Source of the DNA: a virus
Taxonomy: Duplodnaviria; Caudoviricetes
Virus record (IMG/VR): IMGVR_UViG_3300021400_000095
Strand: one strand, 5' to 3'
DNA: 64,000 nt
This document shows positions 3,357 to 38,011 of the stretch, one piece after another. The notes under the pieces were generated by a model. That model saw only the letters and a list, made by a program, of their open reading frames with translations. It had not been told where the DNA came from and ran no database searches. A program made the position numbers and the translations under genes. The stretch's first letter is position 1; the number at the start of each line of letters is the position of its first letter.

Positions 3357-3410
3357 TAAATGTATTAGTTTGGTATAATTTTTGTAGTTATCTAAATAAA
3401 ATTTTTTAGT

Positions 3411-7934: not shown

Positions 7935-8798
7935 ATGGATTTAAAAACTATTAAAGGTAGTCTTACTGTTAGAAATGACACAATTAACAGCTATCTTAAA
8001 GATATAAACAAATACCCTGTTCTTTCTGCTGATGAAGAAAATGAACTAATCAGTTTAATCAGAGAAAATAATGAACATTCAAAAGAATATAGAGATAAAT
8101 TGATTAGTTGTAATCAGAGATTTGTCTTTGCTATTGCAAAAAGATATTGCTCTGATGAAAGAGTACTTGACCTTGTTGATGAAGGAAATATTGGACTGAT
8201 GGAAGCAATAGATAAGTATGACCCAACTGTTGGTGTCAGATTCCTTTCCTATGCTGTTTGGTATATCAGAAGAAGTATTAACTATTACTTAATTAATGAT
8301 AACCTCATGATTAAGAAATCAAATAATATGAAACTTGGTACAAAAACAAGTACCATTGAAAATAAATTCTTCTGTGAAAATGGTAGATATCCAAGTGATA
8401 ATGAAATTATTGATATCTTAAAAAATGAATATGATATTGATATTAATAATAAAATTGATGTTATTGAAGTAAAAACTAATTCCATTAACTCAACCCTTAC
8501 TGAAGATAATACATCATGTACTGTTGAAAATTCTTCTGAATTTGTTGATAAAACTGCAAGTTATAATGACTATGAAAAACAAATGGAAAAAGAACATGCA
8601 ACTAAAACTGTTGAACATTACCTCTCTTTCTTGAATGAAAGAAATGCTACAATCCTTAAAATGAGTTATGGCATTGGATATAATAAAGAATATACTAACT
8701 ATGAAATTGCTGAAGAACTAGGCTTGTCTTCTGAAAGAGTTAGACAACTTAAAACTGAATCAATGCAAAAACTACAAAAAGCAGCAAAATATAATTAA
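7935..8798 (+). CDS. RNA polymerase sigma-70 family factor
   Basis: Region 2 DLVDEGNIGLMEAIDKYD...FLSYAVWYIR; region 4 EIAEELGLSSERVRQL. Confidence 0.93.
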   Translation: MDLKTIKGSLTVRNDTINSYLKDINKYPVLSADEENELISLIRENNEHSKEYRDKLISCNQRFVFAIAKRYCSDERVLDLVDEGNIGLMEAIDKYDPTVGVRFLSYAVWYIRRSINYYLINDNLMIKKSNNMKLGTKTSTIENKFFCENGRYPSDNEIIDILKNEYDIDINNKIDVIEVKTNSINSTLTEDNTSCTVENSSEFVDKTASYNDYEKQMEKEHATKTVEHYLSFLNERNATILKMSYGIGYNKEYTNYEIAEELGLSSERVRQLKTESMQKLQKAAKYN

Positions 8799-11646: not shown

Positions 11647-12339
11647 TTAATTATTCATCATTAATGCAGCACTTCTCATTTTTATAAAACTTTTTGCATT
11701 GATTTGCCTAACTCTTTCTTTTGAAATGCCAAGTTCTTTTCCAATTTCTTCAAGGGTTTTTGGTTTTGACCCATCAAGCCCATAATATTTTGTTAATATA
11801 TTTTTTTCCTTATCAGATAAAAAGTTCATTAAATAACCAACAACTTTTTTTTCTTCATCTGCTTTATCTTGTTTTGCTTCTTCATCAAATAGAAAGTCAT
11901 TATTAACAACAACAGTTGAATCATCTTTATAATCATCTTCTATTTCAACATCATTAATTGGAAGGTCATCTGCATCCATTACATTTTTCTTTTTAATTGC
12001 TTCAACTATAGCCTGTCTAATCCACCAAACAGAATAACTAATCAATTTAAATCCCTTATCACCATCAAATTTATCAATTGCTCTGATTAATCCACAATTA
12101 CCTTCAGAAATAAGTTCATTATAAGACAATCCCATTCCTTGATAATGTTTTGCAATGCTTGCAACAAATTTTAAATTGCATGACACCAATTTATTTCTTG
12201 CTTCAATATCATTTTCTTCCTTATATTTTTTCCAAAGTTCATATTCTTCATCCCTTTCAAGGGGTTGACTCTTTGTTATCTCATTAAAATATAATAAAGC
12301 ACTCTTATCATAGTCAATAACATTCTTATTTCTTTTCAT
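11647..12339 (-). CDS. RNA polymerase sigma-70 family factor (second copy)
   Basis: ELISEGNCGLIRAIDKFD...ISYSVWWIRQ; TLEEIGKELGISKERVRQI. Confidence 0.93.
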   Translation of the reverse strand: MKRNKNVIDYDKSALLYFNEITKSQPLERDEEYELWKKYKEENDIEARNKLVSCNLKFVASIAKHYQGMGLSYNELISEGNCGLIRAIDKFDGDKGFKLISYSVWWIRQAIVEAIKKKNVMDADDLPINDVEIEDDYKDDSTVVVNNDFLFDEEAKQDKADEEKKVVGYLMNFLSDKEKNILTKYYGLDGSKPKTLEEIGKELGISKERVRQINAKSFIKMRSAALMMNN

Positions 12340-20692: not shown

Positions 20693-22270
20693 ATGATTAA
20701 TATTATAGTTGCAGTTGGTGACTATGTTGTTGATAAAGGCTATCCTATTGGAAAAAATGGAAATATGCCTTGGCATAATAAAGCAGATTTAAAATGGTTT
20801 AAAGACACAACCACAGGTCACCCAATTATCATGGGTAGGAAAACATTTGAAGCAATAGGACATCCTCTTAAAAATAGGACCAATATTGTTGTAACAAGCA
20901 GAAGCAAGTCTAATTTGTGGCAAGATAATGCAGCCATAAGAGTTAGCAATTCTCTTGAAAGTGCTATTGAATTTGCAAAAAAAATTGATGATGAAATTTT
21001 CATCATAGGTGGTTCAAGTCTTTATAAATATGCCCTTGAAAATAACCTTGTTGATAGAATCTATATTGATATGCTTGCAGAAAATGTAACTGATGCAGAT
21101 GCTTTCTTTCCAAATGTATTTACTAATAATGATTGGGAAGAAATTGGAAGACCTATTGAAGTTGAACCAAGAAAAGCATATGTAATGACCTATGTTAAAA
21201 ACAATGGAAGCAATAATCATGTTGATGAGCAATATCTTAACCTTGTAAATGAAATTATTGAAAATGGAGAATGTAAAGATACTAGAGCAGGTAAAACAAG
21301 GTCATTGTTTGGAAAACAACTGAGATTTAATCTTAAAGAAGGTCTCCCAATACTTACAACAAAAAAAGTATATACAAAAGGTGTAATACATGAACTACTA
21401 TGGTTCTTAAAAGGTGACACCAACATAAAATATCTTGTTGATAATAATGTTCATATTTGGGATGATGATGCATATAGGTATTATCTTGAAGTAGTTAAAA
21501 AATGCAAAGGACCTGAAGGATTTAAGAATGCTTACAATAAAGAAGCATTTTTGAAATTTGTTAAACTAAATGCTTTTGGGGATGGGTTGTATAATATAGA
21601 TAAGTCTACTTATTACTATGGAGACCTCGGCCCTGTTTATGGTAAACAATGGACTAATTGGAATGGTATTAATCAAATTAAGGAACTTATTAGTAAATTA
21701 AAAACAAATCCAGATGATAGAAGATTGATTGTTTCTGCTTGGAATGTTGGTGAAATCCCTGATATGGCTCTTCCACCTTGTCATTATACTGCTCAATTTT
21801 ATACAAAGAAAATGACAATGGAAGAAAGACAAAAGTGGGTATTTGATAATAATTTTGATTTTCATTTACCTGATGATTATTTTAATAGAAACCTTGAAGA
21901 TTTATTTGATGAATGGGGTGTACCTAAAAGAAAATTATCCTGTATGTGGAATCAGAGGTCAGTTGATTCTTTGCTTGGTTTGCCATTCAACATATTGAGT
22001 TATAGTGTTTTAACATATTTAATTGCACAATGTTGCAATATGGATGTTGATGAACTTATATTCAGTGGTGGTGATTGTCATGTATATGAGAATCAGATTG
22101 AAGCATATGAAAATGAGCAAAAAAATAGAAATCCACATATGTATGGACTTCCAAAAATTAAATTAAATACTAATATAAAAAATATTGAAGACTTCAAATT
22201 TGAAGATATAGAAATTATTGGGTATGAATCATATCCAGCAATCAAATATCCACTATCAGTAGGATTATAA
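20693..22270 (+). CDS. thyA: Bifunctional dihydrofolate reductase-thymidylate synthase
   Basis: DHFR (IGKNGNMPW, IMGRKT, IIGG) fused to TS (ELLWF, LGPVYG, PPCH, QRSVD, GLPFN, HVYENQ). Confidence 0.95.
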   Translation: MINIIVAVGDYVVDKGYPIGKNGNMPWHNKADLKWFKDTTTGHPIIMGRKTFEAIGHPLKNRTNIVVTSRSKSNLWQDNAAIRVSNSLESAIEFAKKIDDEIFIIGGSSLYKYALENNLVDRIYIDMLAENVTDADAFFPNVFTNNDWEEIGRPIEVEPRKAYVMTYVKNNGSNNHVDEQYLNLVNEIIENGECKDTRAGKTRSLFGKQLRFNLKEGLPILTTKKVYTKGVIHELLWFLKGDTNIKYLVDNNVHIWDDDAYRYYLEVVKKCKGPEGFKNAYNKEAFLKFVKLNAFGDGLYNIDKSTYYYGDLGPVYGKQWTNWNGINQIKELISKLKTNPDDRRLIVSAWNVGEIPDMALPPCHYTAQFYTKKMTMEERQKWVFDNNFDFHLPDDYFNRNLEDLFDEWGVPKRKLSCMWNQRSVDSLLGLPFNILSYSVLTYLIAQCCNMDVDELIFSGGDCHVYENQIEAYENEQKNRNPHMYGLPKIKLNTNIKNIEDFKFEDIEIIGYESYPAIKYPLSVGL

Positions 22271-26424: not shown

Positions 26425-26496
26425 GCCACATTAGTACAAAGGTTAGTGCAACTGTCCCTAAAACAGATAATATGGGTTCAATTCCTATATGTGGCA
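26425..26496 (+). tRNA. tRNA with CUA anticodon (amber suppressor-type)
   Basis: Cloverleaf GCCACAT/ATGTGGC; ACTGT-CCCTAAA-ACAGA; T loop TTCAATT; C33 instead of U33. Confidence 0.75.
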
Positions 26497-26549
26497 CAAA
26501 GTATTGAAGATATATTTGATTGATTTTAAATCATAGCAAAATTTGAAAA

Positions 26550-28206: not shown

Positions 28207-28292
28207 TTTCTTGCTTTTTTAAAAAAATATTTATATTTTTGCAAAGAAATTAAGTTTTTTTGAAAAACAATTATATTTATTAATAGAAAAAA

Positions 28293-28424
28293 ATGATTAT
28301 GTTGCAAAAAGTACATACATATAAATCCATTCAAGCCATTAATGCTAATGGTTTTGGAAGTTTTGTACCATCATGTGATTATAACCAATCACTTGAACCA
28401 AGATGGTGTAAAATAAGAGGATAA
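28293..28424 (+). CDS. Leader peptide (43 aa, all 20 amino acids) upstream of the tRNA island
   Basis: MIMLQKVHTYKSIQAINANGFGSFVPSCDYNQSLEPRWCKIRG; its 3' end overlaps the antiterminator strand. Confidence 0.6.
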   Translation: MIMLQKVHTYKSIQAINANGFGSFVPSCDYNQSLEPRWCKIRG

Positions 28425-28534
28425 GAAAATGTACAACAAAATATAATCACACATAGGTTTCTAACCACAACATATTTCCCAACCTCTTAGTTAAAAATTC
28501 CTTCAACAAAAGAATTAAAACCAAGAGGTTTTTT
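28414..28534 (+). promoter_or_regulatory. Attenuator-like terminator/antiterminator
   Basis: Terminator AACCTCTT-a-GTT(28481)/AAC-c-AAGAGGTT(28519)+T4; competing TAAGAGG(28414)/CCTCTTA(28483). Confidence 0.6.
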
Positions 28535-28552: not shown

Positions 28553-28786
28553 ATGATTTTAGTGATAAATTTACATGACTTGTATAAAACATATACTAAT
28601 AAAGATGATTTTGATTATTCAAATAGTTCATTGAAAGACTTGCAAAACTTTTTGAAAATTGCTGATGTAAACCAATTGAAAACTTGTAGCCAATTGAACT
28701 TTGACTCTTGGAAAGAACTTACTGATAAAATGAATACTGATAGAAAAGCATTCCCAAATGCATTTTTCTTGAAAGAAATTAAATAA
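28553..28786 (+). CDS. Small hypothetical protein
   Basis: 77 aa ORF after the attenuator. Confidence 0.65.
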   Translation: MILVINLHDLYKTYTNKDDFDYSNSSLKDLQNFLKIADVNQLKTCSQLNFDSWKELTDKMNTDRKAFPNAFFLKEIK

Positions 28787-28819
28787 TGGCATGATTTTTG
28801 TTACTATGTAAAAATACTT

Positions 28820-28893
28820 GGCCCCTTAGACCAATTGGAAGAGTCAATAGATTCAAAACCTATTCAGTGTGAGTTCAAATCTCACAGGGGCTA
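28820..28893 (+). tRNA. tRNA-Leu(CAA), short variable loop
   Basis: GGCCCCT/AGGGGCT; loop TTCAAAA. Confidence 0.8.
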
Positions 28894-28950
28894 CAAAAAA
28901 AATAAAACTATTTGTTTTTATTTGAAAAATTTGTACTTTTGTAAAAAGTT

Positions 28951-28965
28951 TGGCATGATTATTGC
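28951..28965 (+). promoter_or_regulatory. Sigma-54-type -24/-12 promoter, in tandem with a TAnnTTTG promoter
   Basis: TGGCATGATTATTGC (GG-N10-GC). Confidence 0.7.
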
Positions 28966-29004
28966 TACTAAATGAAATGTAGTTCATTGAAATATTACTT
29001 ACTT

Positions 29005-29087
29005 GGGTAGGTATGTGAAGTGGTCAAACACACCTGACTGTAAATCAGGCAGCTCAGCTTTCGGGGGTTCGAATCCCTCCCTGCCCA
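29005..29087 (+). tRNA. tRNA-Tyr(GTA)
   Basis: CCTGA-CTGTAAA-TCAGG, long variable arm. Confidence 0.95.
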
Positions 29088-29092
29088 CATAT

Positions 29093-29165
29093 GCTTCCAT
29101 AATTCAATTGAAAGAATGTTTCCCCCCTAAGGAAAAAGTTGAAGGTTTGAATCCTTCTGGAAGTA
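29093..29165 (+). tRNA. tRNA-Arg(CCT)
   Basis: TTTCC-CCCCTAA-GGAAA. Confidence 0.8.
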
Positions 29166-29173
29166 CAAGTAAT

Positions 29174-29246
29174 GGTCTTGTGGCAGAATGATTGATGCAC
29201 CTGCCTCTTAAGCAGGGTGATGTGGGTTTGAATCCCATCAGGACCA
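29174..29246 (+). tRNA. tRNA-Lys(CTT)
   Basis: CCTGC-CTCTTAA-GCAGG. Confidence 0.88.
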
Positions 29247-29310
29247 CACAAAAAAAAGTTAAGATTTATGTTGCTTTTTATCTAAATTATTTATATATTT
29301 GTAAAAAGTT

Positions 29311-29325
29311 TGGCATGATTCTTGC
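29311..29325 (+). promoter_or_regulatory. Sigma-54-type promoter (near-duplicate of the 28951 cassette)
   Basis: TGGCATGATTCTTGC followed by boxA-like GTTCATTGA. Confidence 0.7.
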
Positions 29326-29360
29326 TATTAAACTTGAAAGTTCATTGAAAATATAATAAT

Positions 29361-29434
29361 GGGAACATAGCTCAATTGGTTAGAGCAATTGACTGTTAAT
29401 CAATAGGTTATGGGTTCAAGTCCCTTTGTTCCCG
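29361..29434 (+). tRNA. tRNA-Asn(GTT)
   Basis: ATTGA-CTGTTAA-TCAAT. Confidence 0.95.
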
Positions 29435-29458
29435 CAGAAAAAGATGTTTGAAATACAT

Positions 29459-29533
29459 GCTGGGGTCTACTAATTGGTTGAGGTACCCAGATTTTCAATC
29501 TGTGCAATGCGAGTTCGAGTCTCGTCCCCAGTA
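29459..29533 (+). tRNA. tRNA-Glu(TTC)
   Basis: CCAGA-TTTTCAA-TCTGT. Confidence 0.85.
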
Positions 29534-29575
29534 CCTGTAGGTTTGTCAGTGGCATGCCCTAAAACTGTCAAAGTA

Positions 29576-29653
29576 CTAATCAGTCATCTAGTGAACAAGG
29601 ATGCCTAGCAGTGATGCACATGGACACAGAGGTTTGAATCCTCTCTGATTAGC
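29576..29653 (+). ncRNA. tRNA-like RNA lacking a canonical anticodon loop
   Basis: CTAATCAG/CTGATTAG, CATC/GATG D stem, AGAGG-TTTGAAT-CCTCT; anticodon arm capped by GCA-GTGA-TGC. Confidence 0.6.
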
Positions 29654-29659
29654 AAATTA

Positions 29660-29729
29660 AGAAAACATACAGCAAAATTTATTTTGTAAAATTTGAATTT
29701 GGGTTTCAAACTGAAAAAAATGTTTTCTG
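29660..29729 (+). ncRNA. CAGCAA-scaffold RNA 1 (Pro UGG loop)
   Basis: AGAAAACA-TACAGCAA...TTTGAA-TTTGGGT-TTCAAA...TGTTTTCT-G. Confidence 0.75.
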
Positions 29730-29737
29730 TAAAATAT

Positions 29738-29808
29738 TGAAATGTCGTTCAAAGGTAGGACTCAGGATTTTGGTCCCTGCAATGTAGGTTCGATTCCTAC
29801 CATTTCAA
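29738..29808 (+). tRNA. tRNA-Gln(TTG)
   Basis: CAGGA-TTTTGGT-CCCTG. Confidence 0.9.
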
Positions 29809-29889
29809 CAAAGTTTTTTGAAAATTATACTGACTTTTTAAAATCTTGGCATGATTTTTGAATAACTAACATTAGTTCTTTGATTTAAT

Positions 29890-30414
29890 GCATCAGTAGC
29901 TCAGTTGGACAGAGCAACAGCCTTTAAGTGATTGATTTTCAATCAAATAGGAGTGTACTTAAGGAAACTTAAGATATAGAACTTTCCAAATTAGGTGAAG
30001 GCTAAGTACAGTGGGAACCTCACAGTGTAGGTTTTAAAAGGATGATAACCCACATGAGTATATGCTAATACCTAGCCAATGTCCCTGATATTCTAAAACA
30101 AAACATTCAAGTGAGAAGTGTGTGTCTTCTCAGAATATTAGACAGTGTGTAGAGACTAGATGGAAAGAACCTAAGTTGAAATATTAATGTGTACAGGTGG
30201 AAGCAGACCACATAAAAACTTAATGCTTTAAAAGACATTAATTACTTGCAAGATTTCAATATGGTTAAGGTATAGTCCAGACTACAAACATTAACTTGTT
30301 GGAGGAAGTAACTTGATGAAACCTTAAAAAATCTAATCCAATTAATAATGTGATAGTGAAAACTATTGTAGTAGGCTAAGCTGTGGGTCCTGGGTTCGAA
30401 TCCCAGCTGATGTA
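29890..30414 (+). tRNA. tRNA-Arg(TCT) interrupted by a group I intron
   Basis: Exons 29890-29924 and 30376-30414 join to ACAGC-CTTCTAA-GCTGT. Confidence 0.9.
29925..30375 (+). mobile_element. Group I self-splicing intron (IC3-like), no ORF
   Basis: Follows U34, ends in G; IGS TAGGAG 29948-53; P/Q/R/S-like AAATTAGGTGAA, GCTAATACCTAGC, GTAGAGACTAGATGG, AAGGTATAGTCC. Confidence 0.9.
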
Positions 30415-30509
30415 CAAAAAAAAATTAAAAAGTTCATTGACAAGTTTGGTAAATACAATAATCTATTTTGTAGATATGTGATATTGAAATAAAATAGTTG
30501 ACCTCAATG

Positions 30510-30632
30510 GCTATAATTGTTAAGTGGCTGAAAACAGTGGTCTTACCCTAAAGTACTGATATGGGGAAAACCACAATGTTAAATATAAAGTGCTGTATTT
30601 AACACACATTGGTTCAAATCCAATTTATAGCA
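30510..30632 (+). tRNA. tRNA-Leu(TAA)-like (alternatively Ser TGA) with a 21-nt insertion in the anticodon loop
   Basis: GCTATAA/TTATAGC-A; GTGGT-CTTA[insert]AAA-ACCAC; 11-bp variable arm. Confidence 0.6.
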
Positions 30633-30892
30633 TACTAGAGAGGTTATTTAATAAAACAAATACTGACAGTAGCATTGAATAAATGCTTAACATACTTGAT
30701 TTATGTGTTGAAGTTAACCTTCCTTGTAACATTTAACACTAAATAAGTTCACAGTAGCAAAGTAATCTGAGGTGGGTTCCGGCCAGCGGACTGGTATAAG
30801 CAAGAAGAGAGGAATACATAGTTTAATTAAAACAATTAGTGGTCATATATGTTAATGGTGACAGAGTTCAGAATAAGTTTTATTTTTTTATT

Positions 30893-30979
30893 GGAGAGGT
30901 GGCAGAGTGGTCTATTGCATCGGTCTTGAAAACCGAAGTCCTTGTAAGGGGACCCAGGGTTCGAATCCCTGCCTCTCCG
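30893..30979 (+). tRNA. tRNA-Ser(TGA)
   Basis: TCGGT-CTTGAAA-ACCGA, long variable arm, G73. Confidence 0.95.
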
Positions 30980-30985
30980 CATAGA

Positions 30986-31065
30986 AGAAAACATACAGCA
31001 AATTATAATTTAATGAATTTAATGCTATTGAAATTTGGGATTTTCAAACAAAAAAATGTTTTCTG
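30986..31065 (+). ncRNA. CAGCAA-scaffold RNA 2 (Pro UGG loop)
   Basis: AGAAAACA-TACAGCAA...TTGAAA-TTTGGGAT-TTTCAA...TGTTTTCT-G. Confidence 0.75.
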
Positions 31066-31071
31066 TTATTT

Positions 31072-31145
31072 ACCTCATTAGCCCAATTGGAAGAGGCAAT
31101 AGGTTTAGGGCCTATTAAGTGTGAGTTCAAATCTCACATGAGGTA
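31072..31145 (+). tRNA. tRNA-Leu(TAG), short variable loop
   Basis: ATAGG-TTTAGGG-CCTAT. Confidence 0.85.
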
Positions 31146-31407
31146 CTGATAATCAAATTGTTATCACAAAATTTGCTACTTTTTCATGGCCAATGAAAAT
31201 GAAGCAAAAATATTGATAAAATATTGAAAATTAAAAACTTCCTGGTCTAGAAATAGACAAAAATAGCATTAGAACAATGGGCAACCTAGGAATGTCACAT
31301 TGTACTTGCTGGGTGGATATAATTGAATGTGCACTTGATGAATAACACCCCATAGGCTTAATCCTTAATAAATTGGGACAGATGGATGGAAGTTTTTTTC
31401 TAAAAAT

Positions 31408-31481
31408 AGGGTAGTAGTTCAGTTGGCTAGAACACTTGGTTTGGGACCAAGGGGTCGCAGGTTCGAGTCCTGTCTACCCTA
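31408..31481 (+). tRNA. tRNA-Pro(TGG)
   Basis: CTTGG-TTTGGGA-CCAAG. Confidence 0.93.
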
Positions 31482-31692
31482 CCTAATCATTTAATAATTA
31501 ATTACTTAGGTGGTTCAAAAAGTCATTAAACTGCTGTGGGGGTTAGACTTCCCCCTTTGTGTGAAAAATATATTAATACTATTTTATATTAAACTCTGAA
31601 AAGACAAGCTGCAACTTGTTGAAGTAAGTGGGCTTTTATTATTTTAATGTTCTATGTTGCAGAATACTATATTAAACTAATAAAAGAAAAAA

Positions 31693-31759
31693 TTTCTTGT
31701 AAGTCTCAGTGGAAGAGCTACCCATGGGGTGGTCATTGGTTCGAATCCAATCAGGGAAC
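31693..31759 (+). ncRNA. tRNA-like RNA with shrunken anticodon loop
   Basis: TTTCTTG/CAGGGAA, D-like CTCAGTGGAAGAG, TACCC-ATG-GGGTG, ATTGG-TTCGAAT-CCAAT. Confidence 0.6.
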
Positions 31760-31765
31760 AAATTA

Positions 31766-31837
31766 AGGAAACATACAGCAAACAACATTTAAGCCTCAAA
31801 CTTTTAATTTGAAAATGCTAAATAATTTAGTTTCCTG
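31766..31837 (+). ncRNA. CAGCAA-scaffold RNA 3 (Lys UUU loop)
   Basis: AGGAAAC-ATACAGCAA...TCAAA-CTTTTAA-TTTGA...GTTTCCT-G (compensatory pair). Confidence 0.8.
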
Positions 31838-31919
31838 TAAATCTTAACCTTGGATGAAATCATTAGTATATTCCTATCATTGCTAACAGAAAGTAAAGAA
31901 GAGCCAAGGTTTTTTTAAT

Positions 31920-31990
31920 AGGAGTATGGTGTAATGGTAGCATCCGACTCTCCAAAAGTCTAGGCCTCTGTTCGACTCGGAGTACTCCTG
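31920..31990 (+). tRNA. tRNA-Trp(CCA)
   Basis: GACT-CTCCAAA-AGTC. Confidence 0.9.
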
Positions 31991-32014
31991 CATCAGTTTT
32001 TAATTATTGTTTTT

Positions 32015-32087
32015 GGAGGTCTGGCAGAGGTGGTCTATGCACTGGACTGAAAATCCAGAGAACCCAGTTCAACTCTGGGGGCCTCCA
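32015..32087 (+). tRNA. tRNA-Phe(GAA)
   Basis: CTGGA-CTGAAAA-TCCAG. Confidence 0.93.
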
Positions 32088-32102
32088 CAACAAAAAAAGG
32101 AA

Positions 32103-32175
32103 GACTCCATAGCTCAGTTGGTAGAGCACCACACTTTTAATGTGGGGGTCACGAGTTCGAGCCTCGTTGGGGTCA
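32103..32175 (+). tRNA. tRNA-Lys(TTT)
   Basis: CCACA-CTTTTAA-TGTGG. Confidence 0.95.
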
Positions 32176-32433
32176 CAAAAGCAATGTTGGCAAATCCAAT
32201 TGCTTTTTCTTAAGAGAAAATAACCTTTTCACATTTATTGGTTGTATGTGAATAAATTACTGATGTATTTTAAAAACCAATATGTATCAGTATCTGCAAA
32301 GTTTAAGGGTATCTTTGTAACTAAAAGTTAAAACTGTTTGGTTTTTCTTGTAAAACTGGTTTCCAAGCATCTGTTCAACAGTCAGTACCTTTCTGGATGA
32401 ATCATATTGCAGGTTAAAAATGATTCATCACAT

Positions 32434-32505
32434 GCAGAGTTAGTACAATGGTTAGTATGCCAGCCTTCCAAGCTGGATATGAGGGTTCAATTCCCTTACT
32501 CTGCT
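32434..32505 (+). tRNA. tRNA-Gly(TCC)
   Basis: CCAGC-CTTCCAA-GCTGG. Confidence 0.93.
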
Positions 32506-32528
32506 CAAAGTCATAAAGTGCCCAGGGC

Positions 32529-32591
32529 ATGGAAGTATTGCAGGTTGATACTTTTAATATTTAAACTTAGGTTCGAGCCCAGGCCATGCAG
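32529..32591 (+). pseudogene. Degenerate tRNA-like element
   Basis: GCATGG/CCATGC ends and a GGTTCGAGCC T loop, poor internal arms. Confidence 0.35.
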
Positions 32592-32626
32592 CAAGCAATA
32601 CTTTATGAAACAAAATATTTTTCAAT

Positions 32627-33000
32627 GGGGGTGTTCTTGGTTTTGACACATAACAACCAATAAACAAGCATGTAGTGCTTTGTATGTAGGCACTTAAATA
32701 TTAACATTCAACAATTAACTGGCAATTATGCTTATTCTTTTGCTTATTAATCAATACAAGGTATCTGATTAAAACAAATCACAAGGTGATTTGGGCAAAC
32801 ATCTTATAAAGATATTTTCTTTGTTATTGTCTTTAATTATTAAGGTGTCATCTTAAACAAAGTGGTATCCAAACAGGGGTTCAATGAATAACATTTTGTT
32901 TGTACAATTACAAGGTTATTCTTTTAATGAAATTGTACTAAACATGTAGAAACTTTTGAGGAACTTATGTTGGACAGTGGTTCAACTCCACTCACCTCCA
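32627..33000 (+). ncRNA. ssrA: tmRNA; tag ORF 32721-32750 (A)GNYAYSFAY
   Basis: 5' GGGGGTG..GGTTTTGAC; 3' GGACAGTGG-TTCAACT-CCACT-CACCTCCA with G3:U70; TAACT-GGC resume context. Confidence 0.9.
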
Positions 33001-33541
33001 CTTTTTCTTGTTTTTTTGAATATTTATCTGTATATTTGCAGTGTATTTGTTCTTTGACAAGTTTGTAGTAACATAAATATTTGGTTTAGTAAATGTACAC
33101 CCAAATATACCATGCAAACAGGACTATTTGCTAAGGTCTCTTTAAAAACATTTACAGTTGAGTTAACAACTCATGTTAGCATAAGTAAACACATTTATAG
33201 TCCAATGTCTATAGGGTTTCTAACAGCTATTACAATAGTGTTGGTCTTTTCCTATTTTTTTTTTTGAAATTGATTAATAAAAAAAGATAGTGGTTTTTGG
33301 TGATTTTGGCCTATTGTCTTCTTACTTTGGATTAGTAAGTTTTTGAAAAACCCCAGGTTTTTGGCTTTTTTTACCCCTGTACTACTTCAAAAACAAAAAG
33401 AAATGAAAAATCTTTATCCCCATAAGTTTAATCCAACTAATTTGGAGGATAAAAAAACAATAGGTTTTCATTACTGGTTGTGGTAGATACCAAGTCTTTT
33501 CCTATTTTTTTTGAAATATAATAAACCACACAAAAGGTTTA

Positions 33542-33674
33542 AGAAAACATGCAGCAATTTTAAATAAAATTAATTTGTCTGTAATACAAAAGATGGTGGG
33601 TTCAAATCCCCCATAAAGAAGTTTGTGGTCCTTCTTTATTAGTTTAATGGTGAGAACTAAAATTTTGTTTTCTG
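33542..33674 (+). ncRNA. CAGCAA-scaffold RNA 4: circularly permuted tRNA-Tyr-like domain
   Basis: Stem-TGCAGCAA, TTTGT-CTGTAAT-ACAAA, T arm, closed acceptor ATAAAGAAG/CTTCTTTAT, D arm, stem. Confidence 0.8.
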
Positions 33675-33691
33675 TAAAATACCTTATATTT

Positions 33692-33766
33692 GGGAGCTTA
33701 GCTCAGTTGGTTCAGAGCATTTGCCTTACAAGCAAAGGGTCGATGGTTCGAATCCATCAGTTCCCA
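33692..33766 (+). tRNA. tRNA-Val(TAC)
   Basis: TTTGC-CTTACAA-GCAAA. Confidence 0.95.
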
Positions 33767-33912
33767 CAAGAGATACTTGGAGAAGGTACAAGGTAGTTAA
33801 TGCATCAATGGCTACAATCATGGCCTCCATGATAAGAGATAGTTTATGAATTTGAAAACACCAAGTAACAACATGTAGAGGTTGCAAACTCTATATGGCT
33901 CTAATCTTAACA

Positions 33913-34025
33913 AGAAAAGTAACAGCAAAATTTGAAGTTTTTAGATGAGTCATAAGATGATATGTATAGTGAAAACTATATGGGGTCTGAATCCCCAACT
34001 TACCCCAAACTAAAATTCTTTTCTG
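33913..34025 (+). ncRNA. CAGCAA-scaffold RNA 5 (variable-arm and T-arm-like hairpins)
   Basis: AGAAAAG-TAACAGCAA...TATAG-TGAAAA-CTATA, GGGG-TCTGAAT-CCCC...CTTTTCT-G (compensatory pair). Confidence 0.7.
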
Positions 34026-34041
34026 TTTTAAAGTATAAAAT

Positions 34042-34119
34042 GGTGTGTTAGTTCAGCCTGGTTAGAATGCCACACTGTCACTGTGGAGGTCATGGGTTCG
34101 AGTCCCATACATACCGCCA
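34042..34119 (+). tRNA. tRNA-Asp(GTC)
   Basis: CCACA-CTGTCAC-TGTGG, encoded CCA. Confidence 0.95.
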
Positions 34120-34121
34120 AA

Positions 34122-34214
34122 AGAAAACTTACAGCAATTTATGTTGGATAAAATAAAAAATCTCTAAACTTTTTTATGAAATGGTTCAAATCCATTAAAA
34201 CTAATAGTTTTCTG
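34122..34214 (+). ncRNA. CAGCAA-scaffold RNA 6 (amber CUA loop + T arm)
   Basis: AGAAAACT-TACAGCAA...ATAAAAAA-tCTCTAAAc-TTTTTTAT, AATGG-TTCAAAT-CCATT...AGTTTTCT-G. Confidence 0.75.
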
Positions 34215-34228
34215 TTTATTTTTAAACT

Positions 34229-34301
34229 GGGGGATTAGCTCAGTTGGCAGAGCACAACATTTGCAATGTTGGGGTCAGGGGTTCAAATCCCCTATCCTCC
34301 A
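34229..34301 (+). tRNA. tRNA-Ala(TGC)
   Basis: CAACA-TTTGCAA-TGTTG, G3:U70. Confidence 0.95.
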
Positions 34302-34335
34302 CTAAATCAATTAATTACAATATTGTAATTATATT

Positions 34336-34410
34336 CATGCCATCGTATAATTGGTTAGTACCCTGCCCTTTCACGGCAGAAATGTTGGGGTTCGAGTCCC
34401 CCTGGCATGA
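34336..34410 (+). tRNA. tRNA-Glu(TTC), second copy
   Basis: CTGCC-CTTTCAC-GGCAG. Confidence 0.9.
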
Positions 34411-34425
34411 CAAATTTTTAGTACA

Positions 34426-35364
34426 ATGTCAAAATATGATATTTTATTTAGTGAAAAAGAGAAAGAGAACATAATTAAAGATTATGTTGAAAACTTATTA
34501 TCAATTAAAGAAATTTGTTTTAAATATAGTATAAAAAACAAACAATGGTTATGCAAAAAACTTTTAAAAGGAAAAACAAGAAGTTATAATGAATCTTGTA
34601 AAATTGCACATAAAAAATATCCAGAAAAATTCTTACATACAGAAGAAACAAAAAAATTAATGAGACAAAAAAGGCTTGATTTTATGAAAAATCATCCTGA
34701 AGAAACTGCTTGGAGAAAAAGAAACAAACCTTCATATCCTGAGCAATGTTTTATTGATTTTTTAAATGAATATGGATATTCTGACAAATATTTAATTGAA
34801 AGAGAAAAAAGTATATTTCCATATTTCATTGATTTTGCTTTTAATGATTTAAAGATTGCAGTTGAAATTGATGGTTCACAACATTATCTAGAGGAAGATA
34901 GAATTAAAAGGGATAAGAAGAAAGATGAACTATTAATTTCTTTAGGATGGTCAATATTAAGAATTTCAGCAATTTCTTTAGTCAATAAAGAATTTAAAGA
35001 AATTGATAAAAAGTTATCTGAAATCATAGTTTCTGTTAAAACTGTAGTACAACCATTACAAGTTGGTTTAATAAAGAAAATAAAGGGGAAGAAAAGACTA
35101 TCAAAAAATGGTAAATGGTATGTAAATTACAGAGAAAAATCTGAAAAATATTCAGATAACCAAACAATTAAGCAATATGAAAATTCATTAAGACAGAGAA
35201 AAGTTAAAGACAGACCATCAAAAGAAGAATTATTTGAAATGATGTCAACACAGACATTTAAATCAATTGCTGAAAAATATGGTGTTTCAACAAATGCTAT
35301 TCAAAAATGGTGTAAGGCATATGGGATACCACATAGGAAAAGAGATTACAATAATTTGGGATAG
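34426..35364 (+). CDS. DUF559/Vsr-like PD-(D/E)xK endonuclease, free-standing homing-endonuclease-like
   Basis: HTEETKK (NUMOD3-like), YFIDFA, AVEIDGSQH, RDKKKD..L...GW.ILR, C-terminal HTH. Confidence 0.85.
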   Translation: MSKYDILFSEKEKENIIKDYVENLLSIKEICFKYSIKNKQWLCKKLLKGKTRSYNESCKIAHKKYPEKFLHTEETKKLMRQKRLDFMKNHPEETAWRKRNKPSYPEQCFIDFLNEYGYSDKYLIEREKSIFPYFIDFAFNDLKIAVEIDGSQHYLEEDRIKRDKKKDELLISLGWSILRISAISLVNKEFKEIDKKLSEIIVSVKTVVQPLQVGLIKKIKGKKRLSKNGKWYVNYREKSEKYSDNQTIKQYENSLRQRKVKDRPSKEELFEMMSTQTFKSIAEKYGVSTNAIQKWCKAYGIPHRKRDYNNLG

Positions 35365-35437
35365 TGCTGGAACTGGTATACAGGCATGCCTAAGGAGCAT
35401 GTGGAGATTTCCATGTGGGTTCAAATCCCCTACCCCA
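35358..35437 (+). tRNA. tRNA-Leu(AAG), long variable arm, defective T stem (possible pseudogene)
   Basis: CATGC-CTAAGGA-GCATG; 3' T-stem strand ~2 nt short; overlaps the endonuclease stop. Confidence 0.6.
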
Positions 35438-35568
35438 TACAAATGAGATACAACATAACAATATAAGTTATTAGAAAAATAATAATATGGGTATATCACC
35501 CATAGTTTAAGTCCCCTCCAAAAAGGCAGAACAATTATTTTAATAATATAATAACAAAATTAATAATT

Positions 35569-35778
35569 ATGGGGTACTTTGTTTTAATTTTTGGTTTCTT
35601 ATTCACATTTATTGCAACAATAATCAAGGTGAATAAGACTTACATTCCAAAGACTGATTGTTCTACAGACATCAAGGATGCTAAGAGCAATTTGATTCAC
35701 ATGAGAACTTTCTTTATACTTGGACCAAGTTTAATTGTAATAAGTATTATACTTATTATTTTAGGTGTAGGATTATAA
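35569..35778 (+). CDS. Small membrane protein
   Basis: Two hydrophobic helices. Confidence 0.6.
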   Translation: MGYFVLIFGFLFTFIATIIKVNKTYIPKTDCSTDIKDAKSNLIHMRTFFILGPSLIVISIILIILGVGL

Positions 35779-35826
35779 AGGAAATGTAATATGAATGGGT
35801 ACAAGATGAACTTCTTGTACCATTTT

Positions 35827-35900
35827 ACCCCCTTAGCCCAATTGGAAGAGGCAATAGGTTAAGGACCTATTCAGTGTGAGTTCAAATCTCACAGGGGGTA
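35827..35900 (+). tRNA. tRNA-Leu(AAG), short variable loop
   Basis: ATAGG-TTAAGGA-CCTAT; body near-identical to 28820 and 31072. Confidence 0.85.
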
Positions 35901-35918
35901 CAAATAATATAAATATAT

Positions 35919-36036
35919 TGGGAGGTAGCTCAGTTGGTTAGAGCAGAGTATTTATGTTTTTAGTAACAGAAACTTACAGCAATATTTACAATGCATTTGG
36001 AGCCTCAGGTCATAGGTTCAAGTCCTATCCTCCCAA
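35919..36036 (+). ncRNA. tRNA body with the CAGCAA scaffold inserted in the anticodon arm (scaffold RNA 7)
   Basis: TGGGAGG/CCTCCCA, canonical D and T arms; internal GTTTTT-agtaac-AGAAAC-TTACAGCAA, then GC-ATTTGGA-GC. Confidence 0.75.
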
Positions 36037-36041
36037 CAAAT

Positions 36042-36119
36042 GGACATGTAGCTCAGTTGGTTTAGAGCATTTGACTGATATTCAAAAGGTCACAGGTTCA
36101 ACTCCTGTCTTGTCCACCA
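36042..36119 (+). tRNA. tRNA-Ile(GAT)
   Basis: TTTGA-CTGATAT-TCAAA, encoded CCA. Confidence 0.9.
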
Positions 36120-36250
36120 AGATAACCTTTCATTGGTCTAGCTAGGTGAAAGGAGAACTAATTTTATGCTGATAGTTTGAAAGCACACAAGTAGAACAGT
36201 TAGCAAAATAAGGTTGTAAAAAGTTGGTGAAAACCCATTATCTTGACCAT

Positions 36251-36323
36251 GCAGTAATATATCAATTGGTAGATAGTCTGCTTGCCATGCAGAAGGTTGA
36301 GAGTTCGAGTCTCTTTTACTGCT
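36251..36323 (+). tRNA. tRNA-Gly(GCC)
   Basis: TCTGC-TTGCCAT-GCAGA. Confidence 0.92.
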
Positions 36324-36455
36324 CAAAGAGTAACGGACAAGGCTTAGGAGTATGATTAATGTTAAAGGAAGGAGTTTATTAACAAACATTTTTACTTCTT
36401 AATAATCATTAAAACAAGACTGTGGGATGCGAGTGGTTACTTTTTTTATTTAAAT

Positions 36456-36530
36456 GGGGATTATGGTGTAATGGTAGCATGTATGATTGTGGTTCATCAG
36501 GTCACAGTTCGAGCCTGTGTTTTCCCCCCA
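36456..36530 (+). tRNA. tRNA-His(GTG)
   Basis: ATGA-TTGTGGT-TCAT; G-1/C73; two acceptor mismatches; CCA. Confidence 0.75.
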
Positions 36531-36594
36531 TAAAAAATTATTTTTTTTTAGAAAAATTTGTTTATTTAAAATAATATTTATATATTTGTAGAGA

Positions 36595-36697
36595 AGAAAA
36601 CAGACAGCAAATTAAGTTTAAGATTGTAGGTTCAATTCCTTCTGTTTTTAAAGAAATTTAAAGGCAAAAATAGGTAATCCAAAAACAAAGTTTTCTG
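36595..36697 (+). ncRNA. CAGCAA-scaffold RNA 8 (T arm + closed acceptor, no anticodon)
   Basis: AGAAAAC-AGACAGCAA...AGG-TTCAATT-CCT, TGTTTTTAAA-GAAA-TTTAAAGGCA...GTTTTCT-G. Confidence 0.7.
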
Positions 36698-36709
36698 CTT
36701 GAAATACAA

Positions 36710-36865
36710 GCCGCCTTAGTATAGTGGTATTACAACTGACTTGCTACAGAGTGATTCACTGAGAAGAATTGCAAGGTATTAAAAGTGGTGAGCAGTACAG
36801 ATGATAGTTCAACTCTATCTACCTTGCCTAATCAGTAGATGTTGGTTCGATTCCGACAGGCGGCT
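36710..36865 (+). tRNA. tRNA-Thr(TGT)-like with an 85-nt anticodon insertion containing a nested tRNA-like module
   Basis: ACTGA-CTTG[36744-36828]TAA-TCAGT; insert has GCAAGGTA/TACCTTGC and GATAG-TTCAACT-CTATC. Confidence 0.7.
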
Positions 36866-36906
36866 CAAATTTTCTGAACACATAGGAAAATTTTTGTGTA
36901 CACAAT

Positions 36907-37061
36907 GCCTGTATAGACTGAAATGGTGAAAGGGAGTAACAAACTGCTAAACAAATTTTAGTGAATGCATTAAGTTAAACTTTGAGTTAGTAAGTGTGAA
37001 AGGCTTAAGCAGCACCCTCTTTTGATAGAGGGGGATGTGGGTTCAATTCCCACTACAGGTA
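36907..37061 (+). ncRNA. tRNA-like gene with ~80-nt D-loop insertion and atypical anticodon loop
   Basis: GCCTGTA/TACAGGT; CCCTC-TTTTGATA-GAGGG; GTGGG-TTCAATT-CCCAC. Confidence 0.6.
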
Positions 37062-37068
37062 CAAAAAT

Positions 37069-37142
37069 TGTGGGGTGATAGCAGTTGGTAGCTAGTCAGG
37101 CTCATAACCTGAAGGTCATGGGTTCAAGTCCCATCCCCGCAA
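37069..37142 (+). tRNA. tRNA-Met(CAT), initiator-like
   Basis: TCAGG-CTCATAA-CCTGA; fMet-like D arm. Confidence 0.9.
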
Positions 37143-37676
37143 CAACAGAACAAATATTTTTTCCTTATCATTTCTTTGATAAGTATAACACAAACTTGTC
37201 CTATAGTCCCTCAAATATAGGACCTTGCCATGTGCAATTAGGTAAAGGCATAAAATAGTGTACATATGTTTATGCATAATAAGAGACCATTCCAAAGTGT
37301 TGGGTTGCTAATTAAACATGTACTCAGCCATTCTTGGCTAGTCAGAATATAACAAATAAATCTGGAGAGAAGCACCTTGCCAACAGTTAAGTAAAACCTT
37401 GTAAAGAAAATTATTTCCAAAGGTCATCCATTTAAAATGGTTAAACAGTCGCAGTGATGTAGTAAAGTTTGTGTTTTTTTATTATTTAGTGCTGTAAAAA
37501 GTTTGGCAGATTAAAGATTAGGTTGCAAATGAAAGTTATCCTCCCTATTGGCTGTGTATTTTTATAATACTGAACTCTAGTTGCATAAGCCTTGTATGAG
37601 CAGCATAACTAAAATTATTTAGTTCCAAACATTCAGGGAGTAAGGCATTAATAAGGGCACTGAACAGCACTATTAT

Positions 37677-37753
37677 GTACCTGTGGCAGAGTGGTCAAAT
37701 GCAAAGGTCTGCAAAACCTTGATTCATTGGTTCAAATCCAATCAGGTACTCCA
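37677..37753 (+). tRNA. tRNA-Cys(GCA)
   Basis: AAGGT-CTGCAAA-ACCTT, U73, CCA. Confidence 0.93.
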
Positions 37754-37812
37754 AAAAAGCATATAACAATTTTTGAATTTTTGTAATTTAGAAGTTGTTA
37801 TTTTTTTTTTAT

Positions 37813-37897
37813 GGAGGGTTGGGTGAGTGGCTTAAACCAGCAGTTTGCTAAACTGCCGACCCACAAGGGTCCACTGGTTCAAATCCAGTACCCTCCG
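37813..37897 (+). tRNA. tRNA-Ser(GCT)
   Basis: GCAGT-TTGCTAA-ACTGC, long variable arm. Confidence 0.95.
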
Positions 37898-38011
37898 CAT
37901 TAACAAAAAGAATTGTATTTACCAAATTTTAATTAGCAGCACATCTTTAATAGGTGTGCTTTTTTTTTGTTTAGTATTAAACTATTTATATAAAAATATA
38001 TTAATTTAGGT

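Follow-up and report, generated by a model that had tools for sequence, protein, structure and literature searches.

A short leader at the head of a phage tRNA island appears to act as a ribosome-coupled attenuator: it would respond when decoding is slow at almost any amino acid and control a supplementary transcript into the island, a reading to which we assign a probability of about 0.68; that a translation-coupled switch of some kind is present is highly probable. The anatomy and conservation of the unit, the covariation of its strands and its excess amino-acid coverage are direct observations, and from them we infer a promoter, translation, conditional read-through and a trigger.

According to the proposed mechanism, a phage-type promoter would start the leader RNA, and the leader ORF, whose conservation is observed, would be translated, its codon set mattering and its product not. 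By default, the purine strand at the end of the ORF would capture the 5' arm of the terminator as this arm emerges; with a ribosome stalled at codons 2–38, or never loaded, transcription would continue into the tRNA genes. Where every codon is decoded in time, the ribosome would cover or melt the purine strand, with terminator formation and a stop near position 28534. The signal would be slow decoding from any cause, be it cleavage of host tRNAs, starvation or infection-driven depletion. Basal tRNA output would probably come from sigma54-like and host-type promoters inside the island, the leader serving as an on-demand booster.

The stretch of DNA that was analysed (64,000 nt, hereafter the window) has a GC content of 29% and contains 27 tRNA calls, a tmRNA and two sigma70-family genes (7935–8798 and 11647–12339). 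A recoded genome was rejected, since translation table 11 fits and TAG ends long ORFs. The one gene tested (20693–22270) has Prevotella Lak phages as its best named relatives, at about 50% identity, and the source of the window is most likely a large phage with a host among the gut Bacteroidota.

Conceptual translation confirmed the claim of the preliminary description that the leader ORF encodes all 20 amino acids in 43 codons (Table 1), and the full set is still present when the second ATG (28299) is taken as the start. The start context is A-rich and without a Shine-Dalgarno sequence. No amino acid occurs more than four times among the 43 residues and five occur once; the tandem codons for one to three amino acids that mark the classical trp, his and phe leaders are absent from the window leader. 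By classical attenuator standards, an amino acid that occurs once makes a weak sensor, and many amino acids in the leaders do occur once. Only 27 of the 61 sense codons are used, with none of the codons for the phage's own Lys-CUU and Arg-CCU tRNAs among them; the leader thus samples every amino acid but not every isoacceptor. The earlier suggestion that loss of any tRNA would be sensed is therefore overstated.

The chance of 20/20 coverage for a single ORF is 0.5–1%, and among the 213 small ORFs of the window, 4 reach it. Coverage in the window alone is thus weak to modest evidence, and it exceeds chance only through the homologues. Two other readings of the ORF region were rejected: a structured noncoding RNA (z −3.0), as the sequence of the ORF body is unconserved among homologues while the frame is kept, and a functional peptide family, there being no Pfam match and only weak purifying selection.

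Table 1. Features of the leader unit and the tRNA island (window coordinates).
Feature	Position	Strand	Details	Basis
TATTTAT(A/T) promoter-like motif	28274..28283	+		recurrence before leaders
Leader peptide ORF	28293..28424	+	43 aa, all 20 amino acids; last new one Trp38	translation; frame kept in homologue L001
Antiterminator 5' strand	28414..28432	+	over last codons and stop	pairs with 28470–28489
Invariant 25-nt motif	28450..28474	+	CACATAGGTTTCTAACCACAACATA, with 4-bp hairpin	homologue comparison
Switch strand	28470..28489	+	antiterminator 3' strand, common to terminator 5' arm (28481–28488)	folding, family pairing
Intrinsic terminator	28481..28534	+	long loop and U run	hairpin −11.6 kcal/mol, z −3.3; covariation
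First of four sigma54-like sites (also 28951, 29311, 29847)	28787..28800	+	candidate attenuator bypass	
tRNA island	28820..37898	+	26 tRNAs (ARAGORN), tmRNA, several interrupted tRNAs	
Terminator closing island	37938..37968	+		

Homologous leaders and the proposed RNA switch

A protein search with the upstream gene led to one phage, L001, whose leader keeps the frame at 43 aa with 19 amino acid types, Trp and His lying at other positions; the helix overlap and the terminator are likewise conserved, and the tRNA cluster follows immediately. The segment identical in the window and L001, CACATAGGTTTCTAACCAC, was used as the query for a wider search, which brought up 16 stretches from viral records, 75 from metagenomes and 4 from genomes. 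Six chance matches that lack the unit (L060, L107, L109, L110, L112 and L113), incomplete loci and two ORF-less copies were removed; L002/L003 were likewise excluded as chance matches. There remain 57 distinct leaders, which form 20 peptide families at 45% identity with a median pairwise identity of 26%. Because the search was made by a DNA motif, the peptides were not selected for composition. A terminator-only pattern taken from the window matched 15 stretches, and its refined version gave the same loci again and one coding chance match. One full unit with a tRNA cluster was found in a Bacteroidales MAG (L111), probably a binned phage contig; no similar element was found in GenBank phages.

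The leader ORFs have 27–63 codons and each ends close to the 25-nt motif, whereas at random positions in tRNA clusters an ORF of 38–65 codons ends comparably at only 5%. tRNA clusters lie downstream of the leaders, and the unit keeps its place at the cluster head though the first tRNA varies; in five near-complete genomes (345–393 kb) the motif is present in a single copy and heads the main tRNA cluster.

The complementary segments named in the preliminary description, TAAGAGG (28414–28420) and CCTCTTA (28483–28489), are both in place, as are the terminator arms AACCTCTT (28481–28488) and AAGAGGTT (28523–28530), with a U run to 28534, and the GAAA-AUGU extension, with which the antiterminator duplex reaches −13.2 kcal/mol. 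The overlap of ORF and antiterminator is kept throughout: each of the 57 leaders has a purine strand, located in the last 17 codons or across the stop, that is able to pair with the 5' arm of the terminator. The terminator itself, 30–37 nt after the motif start, is kept in 56 of the 57 leaders. The exception is L052 (1140–1250), in which a 20/20 leader is intact and the terminator is deleted, either a natural constitutive variant or an assembly error.

Cognate antiterminator pairing beats non-cognate pairing in 17 of the 20 families (permutation P < 5e-5), and in 18 homologues the terminator stem has 93% of cells paired, with two-sided changes at 3 of 8 pairs. The structural traits of a ribosome-mediated attenuator are thus present, namely a short conserved ORF, a terminator and an exclusive antiterminator lying under a late-ORF ribosome.

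In folding models, ribosome position sets the choice between terminator and antiterminator, as had been proposed. For the nascent window RNA, the antiterminator probability is 0.3–0.9 with codons 2–38 in the A site and 0 for codons 39–44, so that the claim that a stall at any earlier codon frees the antiterminator holds in the model for the former and fails for the latter. In the full-length window RNA, equilibrium favours the terminator wherever the ribosome sits; the switch must therefore be kinetic. Across the homologues, capture of the terminator arm is 0.64–0.71 for early stalls, falls to 0.27 with the ribosome three codons before the end and is 0.39 at the stop, or 0.03 there when pairing across the ribosome is forbidden; the ribosome-free mean is 0.66. 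These values indicate that the default is read-through and that termination needs timely and complete translation. Anti-antiterminator-like folding of the untranslated leader is partly seen in the window (0.34–0.44) but not in most homologues (mean 0.66).

The geometry of the late ribosome and the antiterminator is clean in the window and less so in leaders with a long C-terminal tail. In families 0, 1, 2, 3, 5, 7 and 10, the antiterminator strand lies 5' of a ribosome sitting at the stop, so that masking there needs a steric or kinetic argument.

Amino-acid coverage and the proposed signal

All 20 amino acids are present in 29 of the 57 peptides and at least 19 in 43. The expected number with 20/20 is 1.7 from proteome composition, 1.8 from the leaders' own base composition, 3.5 from pooled leader composition and 8.3 from a uniform model; shifted and reverse frames of the same DNA give 0–6 of 57. 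When each family counts once, the leaders average 18.26 types, versus 16.7 in 312 control ORFs of matched length taken from the same tRNA clusters (P < 2e-4). Against the uniform model, whole-peptide family coverage reaches only P 0.055–0.08. In the sensing part (the codons lying 10 nt or more upstream of the antiterminator, 36 on average) there are 17.7 types versus 16.67 under the uniform model, P 2.5e-4, and the window leader completes its 20 at Trp38, the last such codon. Coverage in divergent homologues is accordingly near-complete at 26% median identity and above the proteome, composition and matched-ORF nulls, but 20/20 is found in only 8 of the 20 families; the other 12, all 11 singletons among them, never reach it and have 14–19 types.

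The pN/pS ratio within the larger families is about 0.5–1, yet a lost single-copy residue reappears elsewhere in 29.2 of 38 family-by-residue units versus 22.3 expected (P 0.004, from rough alignments); selection therefore seems to act on the amino-acid set and not on the peptide. Residues that occur once show only a modest gain in conservation (odds ratio 0.67). In four-fold boxes, codons ending in U make up 18% in leaders versus 42% in proteomes; we dropped this avoidance as evidence because it is partly compositional, shifted frames giving 22–26%.

The control codons are related to the downstream function, with broad coverage before a cluster of tRNAs for 19–20 amino acids. In phages with the motif, amino acids absent from the leader overlap tRNAs absent from the cluster 9 times versus 4.4–4.9 expected (P 0.005–0.03; 0.09–0.26 without two genomes), a match of gaps that is suggestive only. 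Thirteen further large phage records, collected independently by protein homology, are without the 25-nt motif. In five lineages among them (G317, G318, G321/G322, G326, G329), the tRNA region contains two short leaders with terminators, or a single clear one, and the amino acids of these split leaders match the tRNA block behind (L170, L171, L173, L174, L178, L181). For example, Phe, Lys, Met, Cys, Gly, Trp, His and Ala are all present in a 24-codon leader of L171. The combined P is 4e-4, for seven leaders picked and delimited by hand, post hoc.

These data bear on the explanation that a translation-coupled switch reads overall ribosome availability or speed, as a timer or coupling sensor, with amino-acid coverage as a by-product. 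The capture of the arm in untranslated leaders (mean 0.66) agrees with it, as do families with only 14–17 amino acid types and the induction of uORF attenuators such as vmlR by translation defects (PMC9226507). Coverage of the sensing part beyond the uniform model, the regain of lost residues and the split leaders that track their tRNA blocks speak against it, and we consider it unlikely.

Within the attenuator reading, the leader may be a selected, pan-amino-acid surveillance gene for the destruction of host tRNAs. A ribosome pass over about 38 codons would audit the pool of tRNAs, and the full replacement tRNA set would be called up when an anticodon nuclease of the host makes the ribosome stall. 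We advance this tentatively, as a doubtful extension; the anticodon-nuclease trigger is indistinguishable here from amino-acid starvation or general slowing.

Motif, promoters and tRNA island

The preliminary description omitted the 25-nt motif (Table 1). It consists of six bases, a 4-bp hairpin and eight more bases, is invariant with no compensatory change, and lies in the loop between the two antiterminator strands. Searches with a relaxed loop, with a relaxed stem or by the terminator alone added just one one-base variant, so that the invariance is not merely a search artefact within IMG/VR. The motif was not found in 300 other Bacteroidales genomes, and a host origin was rejected on the host-order genomes searched. 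Also rejected were a solitary CRISPR repeat or mimicry (no matching arrays in the 61–301 Bacteroidales genomes searched) and a link to a phage Cas6 (no Cas6 in the five near-complete phage genomes; only L077 precedes a Cas6 gene). The motif most likely, at about even odds, times the ribosome as a polymerase pause or as a binding site for a factor; part of a trans-acting small RNA is the next most likely role.

The two ORF-less copies (L077, 1087–1150; L103, 1560–1630) have the motif and the terminator with no leader ORF and no tRNAs; a TATTTAT site lies directly before each, and they precede protein genes, in L077 the Cas6 gene.

A TATTTAT(A/T) site lies 19–55 nt (106 in one case) before the ATG in 50 of the 57 leaders and 21–52 nt before several other genes of the window, without window-wide enrichment; it is probably read by a phage sigma factor. 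The sigma54-like sites, TGG(C/T)A..TTG, number 12 in the window versus 0.4 expected and mostly lie just before genes or tRNAs (listed positions 3371, 5109, 28787, 28951, 29311, 29847, 42381, 50226, 52047, 54559 and 62836), so the phage apparently uses RpoN-type promoters. Such a site is found between the terminator and the first tRNA in 43 of 48 loci. Host-type promoter-like sites and boxA-like words also occur inside the island; the latter, GTTC(A/T)TTGA(A/C)A, follow island promoters at 28626, 28982, 29340, 30432 and 33049, which suggests antitermination of the rRNA type.

In mid-island, two related ATAGG...CCTAT hairpins with long T runs (33209–33265 and 33462–33515) may shorten the read-through transcript; the first begins with a stretch resembling the leader motif. 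Given the bypass promoters and these hairpins, conditional boosting is the most fitting role for the leader, with a promoter that probably belongs to another class and may act at another stage of infection.

The island covers 19 amino acids, with an interrupted Thr-like gene in addition. The tRNA at 29889–30414, missed by default ARAGORN, contains a group I intron (RF00028, 29928–30301, E 9.5e-8), and its joined exons give an Arg(UCU)-like anticodon. Rfam matches show three tRNA-like genes with insertions of 45–85 nt in the anticodon arm: 36710–36865, resembling Thr(UGU), 35919–36036, resembling Pro, and 30510–30632. Units of the form AGAAAAC..ACAGCAA ... TTTTCTG lie between tRNAs (29660–29730, 30985–31070, 31765–31840, 33545–33675, 34120–34215 and 36595–36700) and also inside the insertion at 35919–36036. 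A DUF559-type endonuclease with HTH domains, possibly a homing endonuclease, is encoded among the tRNA genes (34426–35364). Upstream of the leader there is a tRNA with a CUA anticodon (26425–26497, amber suppressor-like), although long ORFs still end in TAG.

The bypass promoters in 43 of the 48 loci would suit a second explanation, namely that the ORF, or else the terminated RNA, forms an independent small gene (a peptide or a motif-based trans-acting sRNA) and the terminator only insulates a self-promoted island. Conservation of the motif far beyond the need of a cis switch and the ORF-less copies before protein genes, with their own promoter-like sites, point the same way. However, the peptides diverge to 26% with pN/pS near 0.5–1, the covariation of the purine strand with the terminator arm would be needless in an insulator, and the unit keeps to the cluster head across loci that differ in their first tRNA; we regard this explanation as improbable, somewhat more so than a general ribosome-speed sensor.

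Lower again we place a gate of the nut/boxB kind, in which a phage antiterminator or a host Nus-like factor bound to the motif would control read-through and the ORF would be secondary. An invariant stem and loop without compensatory change fits sequence-specific recognition, as does the placing of the motif between the antiterminator strands, but the motif is single-copy per genome, amino-acid coverage is left unexplained, split leaders occur without the motif and the five near-complete genomes have no Cas6. The last explanation, a chance ORF beside an ordinary terminator, could draw on the number of small ORFs in the window with 20/20 coverage (4 of 213) and is refuted by the homologue set, in which ORF, helix overlap and coverage recur in 20 families.

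Comparison with known systems

The leader has no Rfam match at E up to 10, leader families and the T-box included, and a literature search, with most subscription papers outside its reach, found no published attenuator on phage tRNA genes. If the attenuator reading is true, the mechanism would work like that of the trp and his type, the novelty being the tRNA genes, the phage and the breadth of nearly all 20 amino acids.

The closest likeness is to trpL, hisL, pheL, leuL and the multivalent thrL and ilvGMEDA leaders, which have a short ORF, an antiterminator at the ORF end and an arm common with an intrinsic terminator; in these, too, stalling leads to read-through and the sensed amino acids relate to the downstream genes. 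The phage leader differs in that it precedes tRNA genes, has 40–60 codons that cover 14–20 amino acid types, many of them a single time, where the classical leaders repeat codons for one to three in tandem, and carries an invariant 25-nt motif. In folding models the phage leaders also have no consistent anti-antiterminator, so that an untranslated phage leader would read through.

In E. coli pheM-pheST, the supply of charged tRNA controls a component of the translation machinery by attenuation. That system is chromosomal, responds to one amino acid and regulates a synthetase and not tRNA genes. The T-box riboswitch likewise couples tRNA status to antitermination, but it binds one uncharged tRNA directly, without translation. 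The split leaders of the motif-free phages share a leader ORF and a switchable terminator before phage tRNA genes, with amino acids that track the tRNA set; there the amino acids are divided among blocks and the motif is absent in the genomes tested, whereas the motif clade has one leader per whole cluster.

Among uORF attenuators that sense translation failure without amino-acid specificity are B. subtilis vmlR (PMC9226507) and ermC (PMC2965389), antibiotic-sensing examples whose output, like that proposed here, relieves the failure. They respond to drug-induced stalling and control resistance genes, whereas the phage leader would have codons selected for breadth and tRNAs as its output.

Why phages carry tRNAs has been open for more than 50 years, with codon compensation and counter-defence against tRNA depletion as rival answers (PMC10264068). 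Constitutive codon compensation needs no sensor while on-demand replacement does, so that a feedback switch shows which signal the phage responds to. Were the anticodon-nuclease reading true, the unit would amount to an inducible counter-defence, and it would show directly that phages bring their tRNAs into play when needed, in response to tRNA depletion. The 240-nt unit makes the question testable and could serve as a compact genetic reporter of tRNA-pool damage.

Taken together, if the attenuator reading is true, leader-peptide attenuation would no longer be confined to one to three amino acids, to biosynthetic operons and to cells, but would also embrace nearly all 20 amino acids, tRNA genes and phages.
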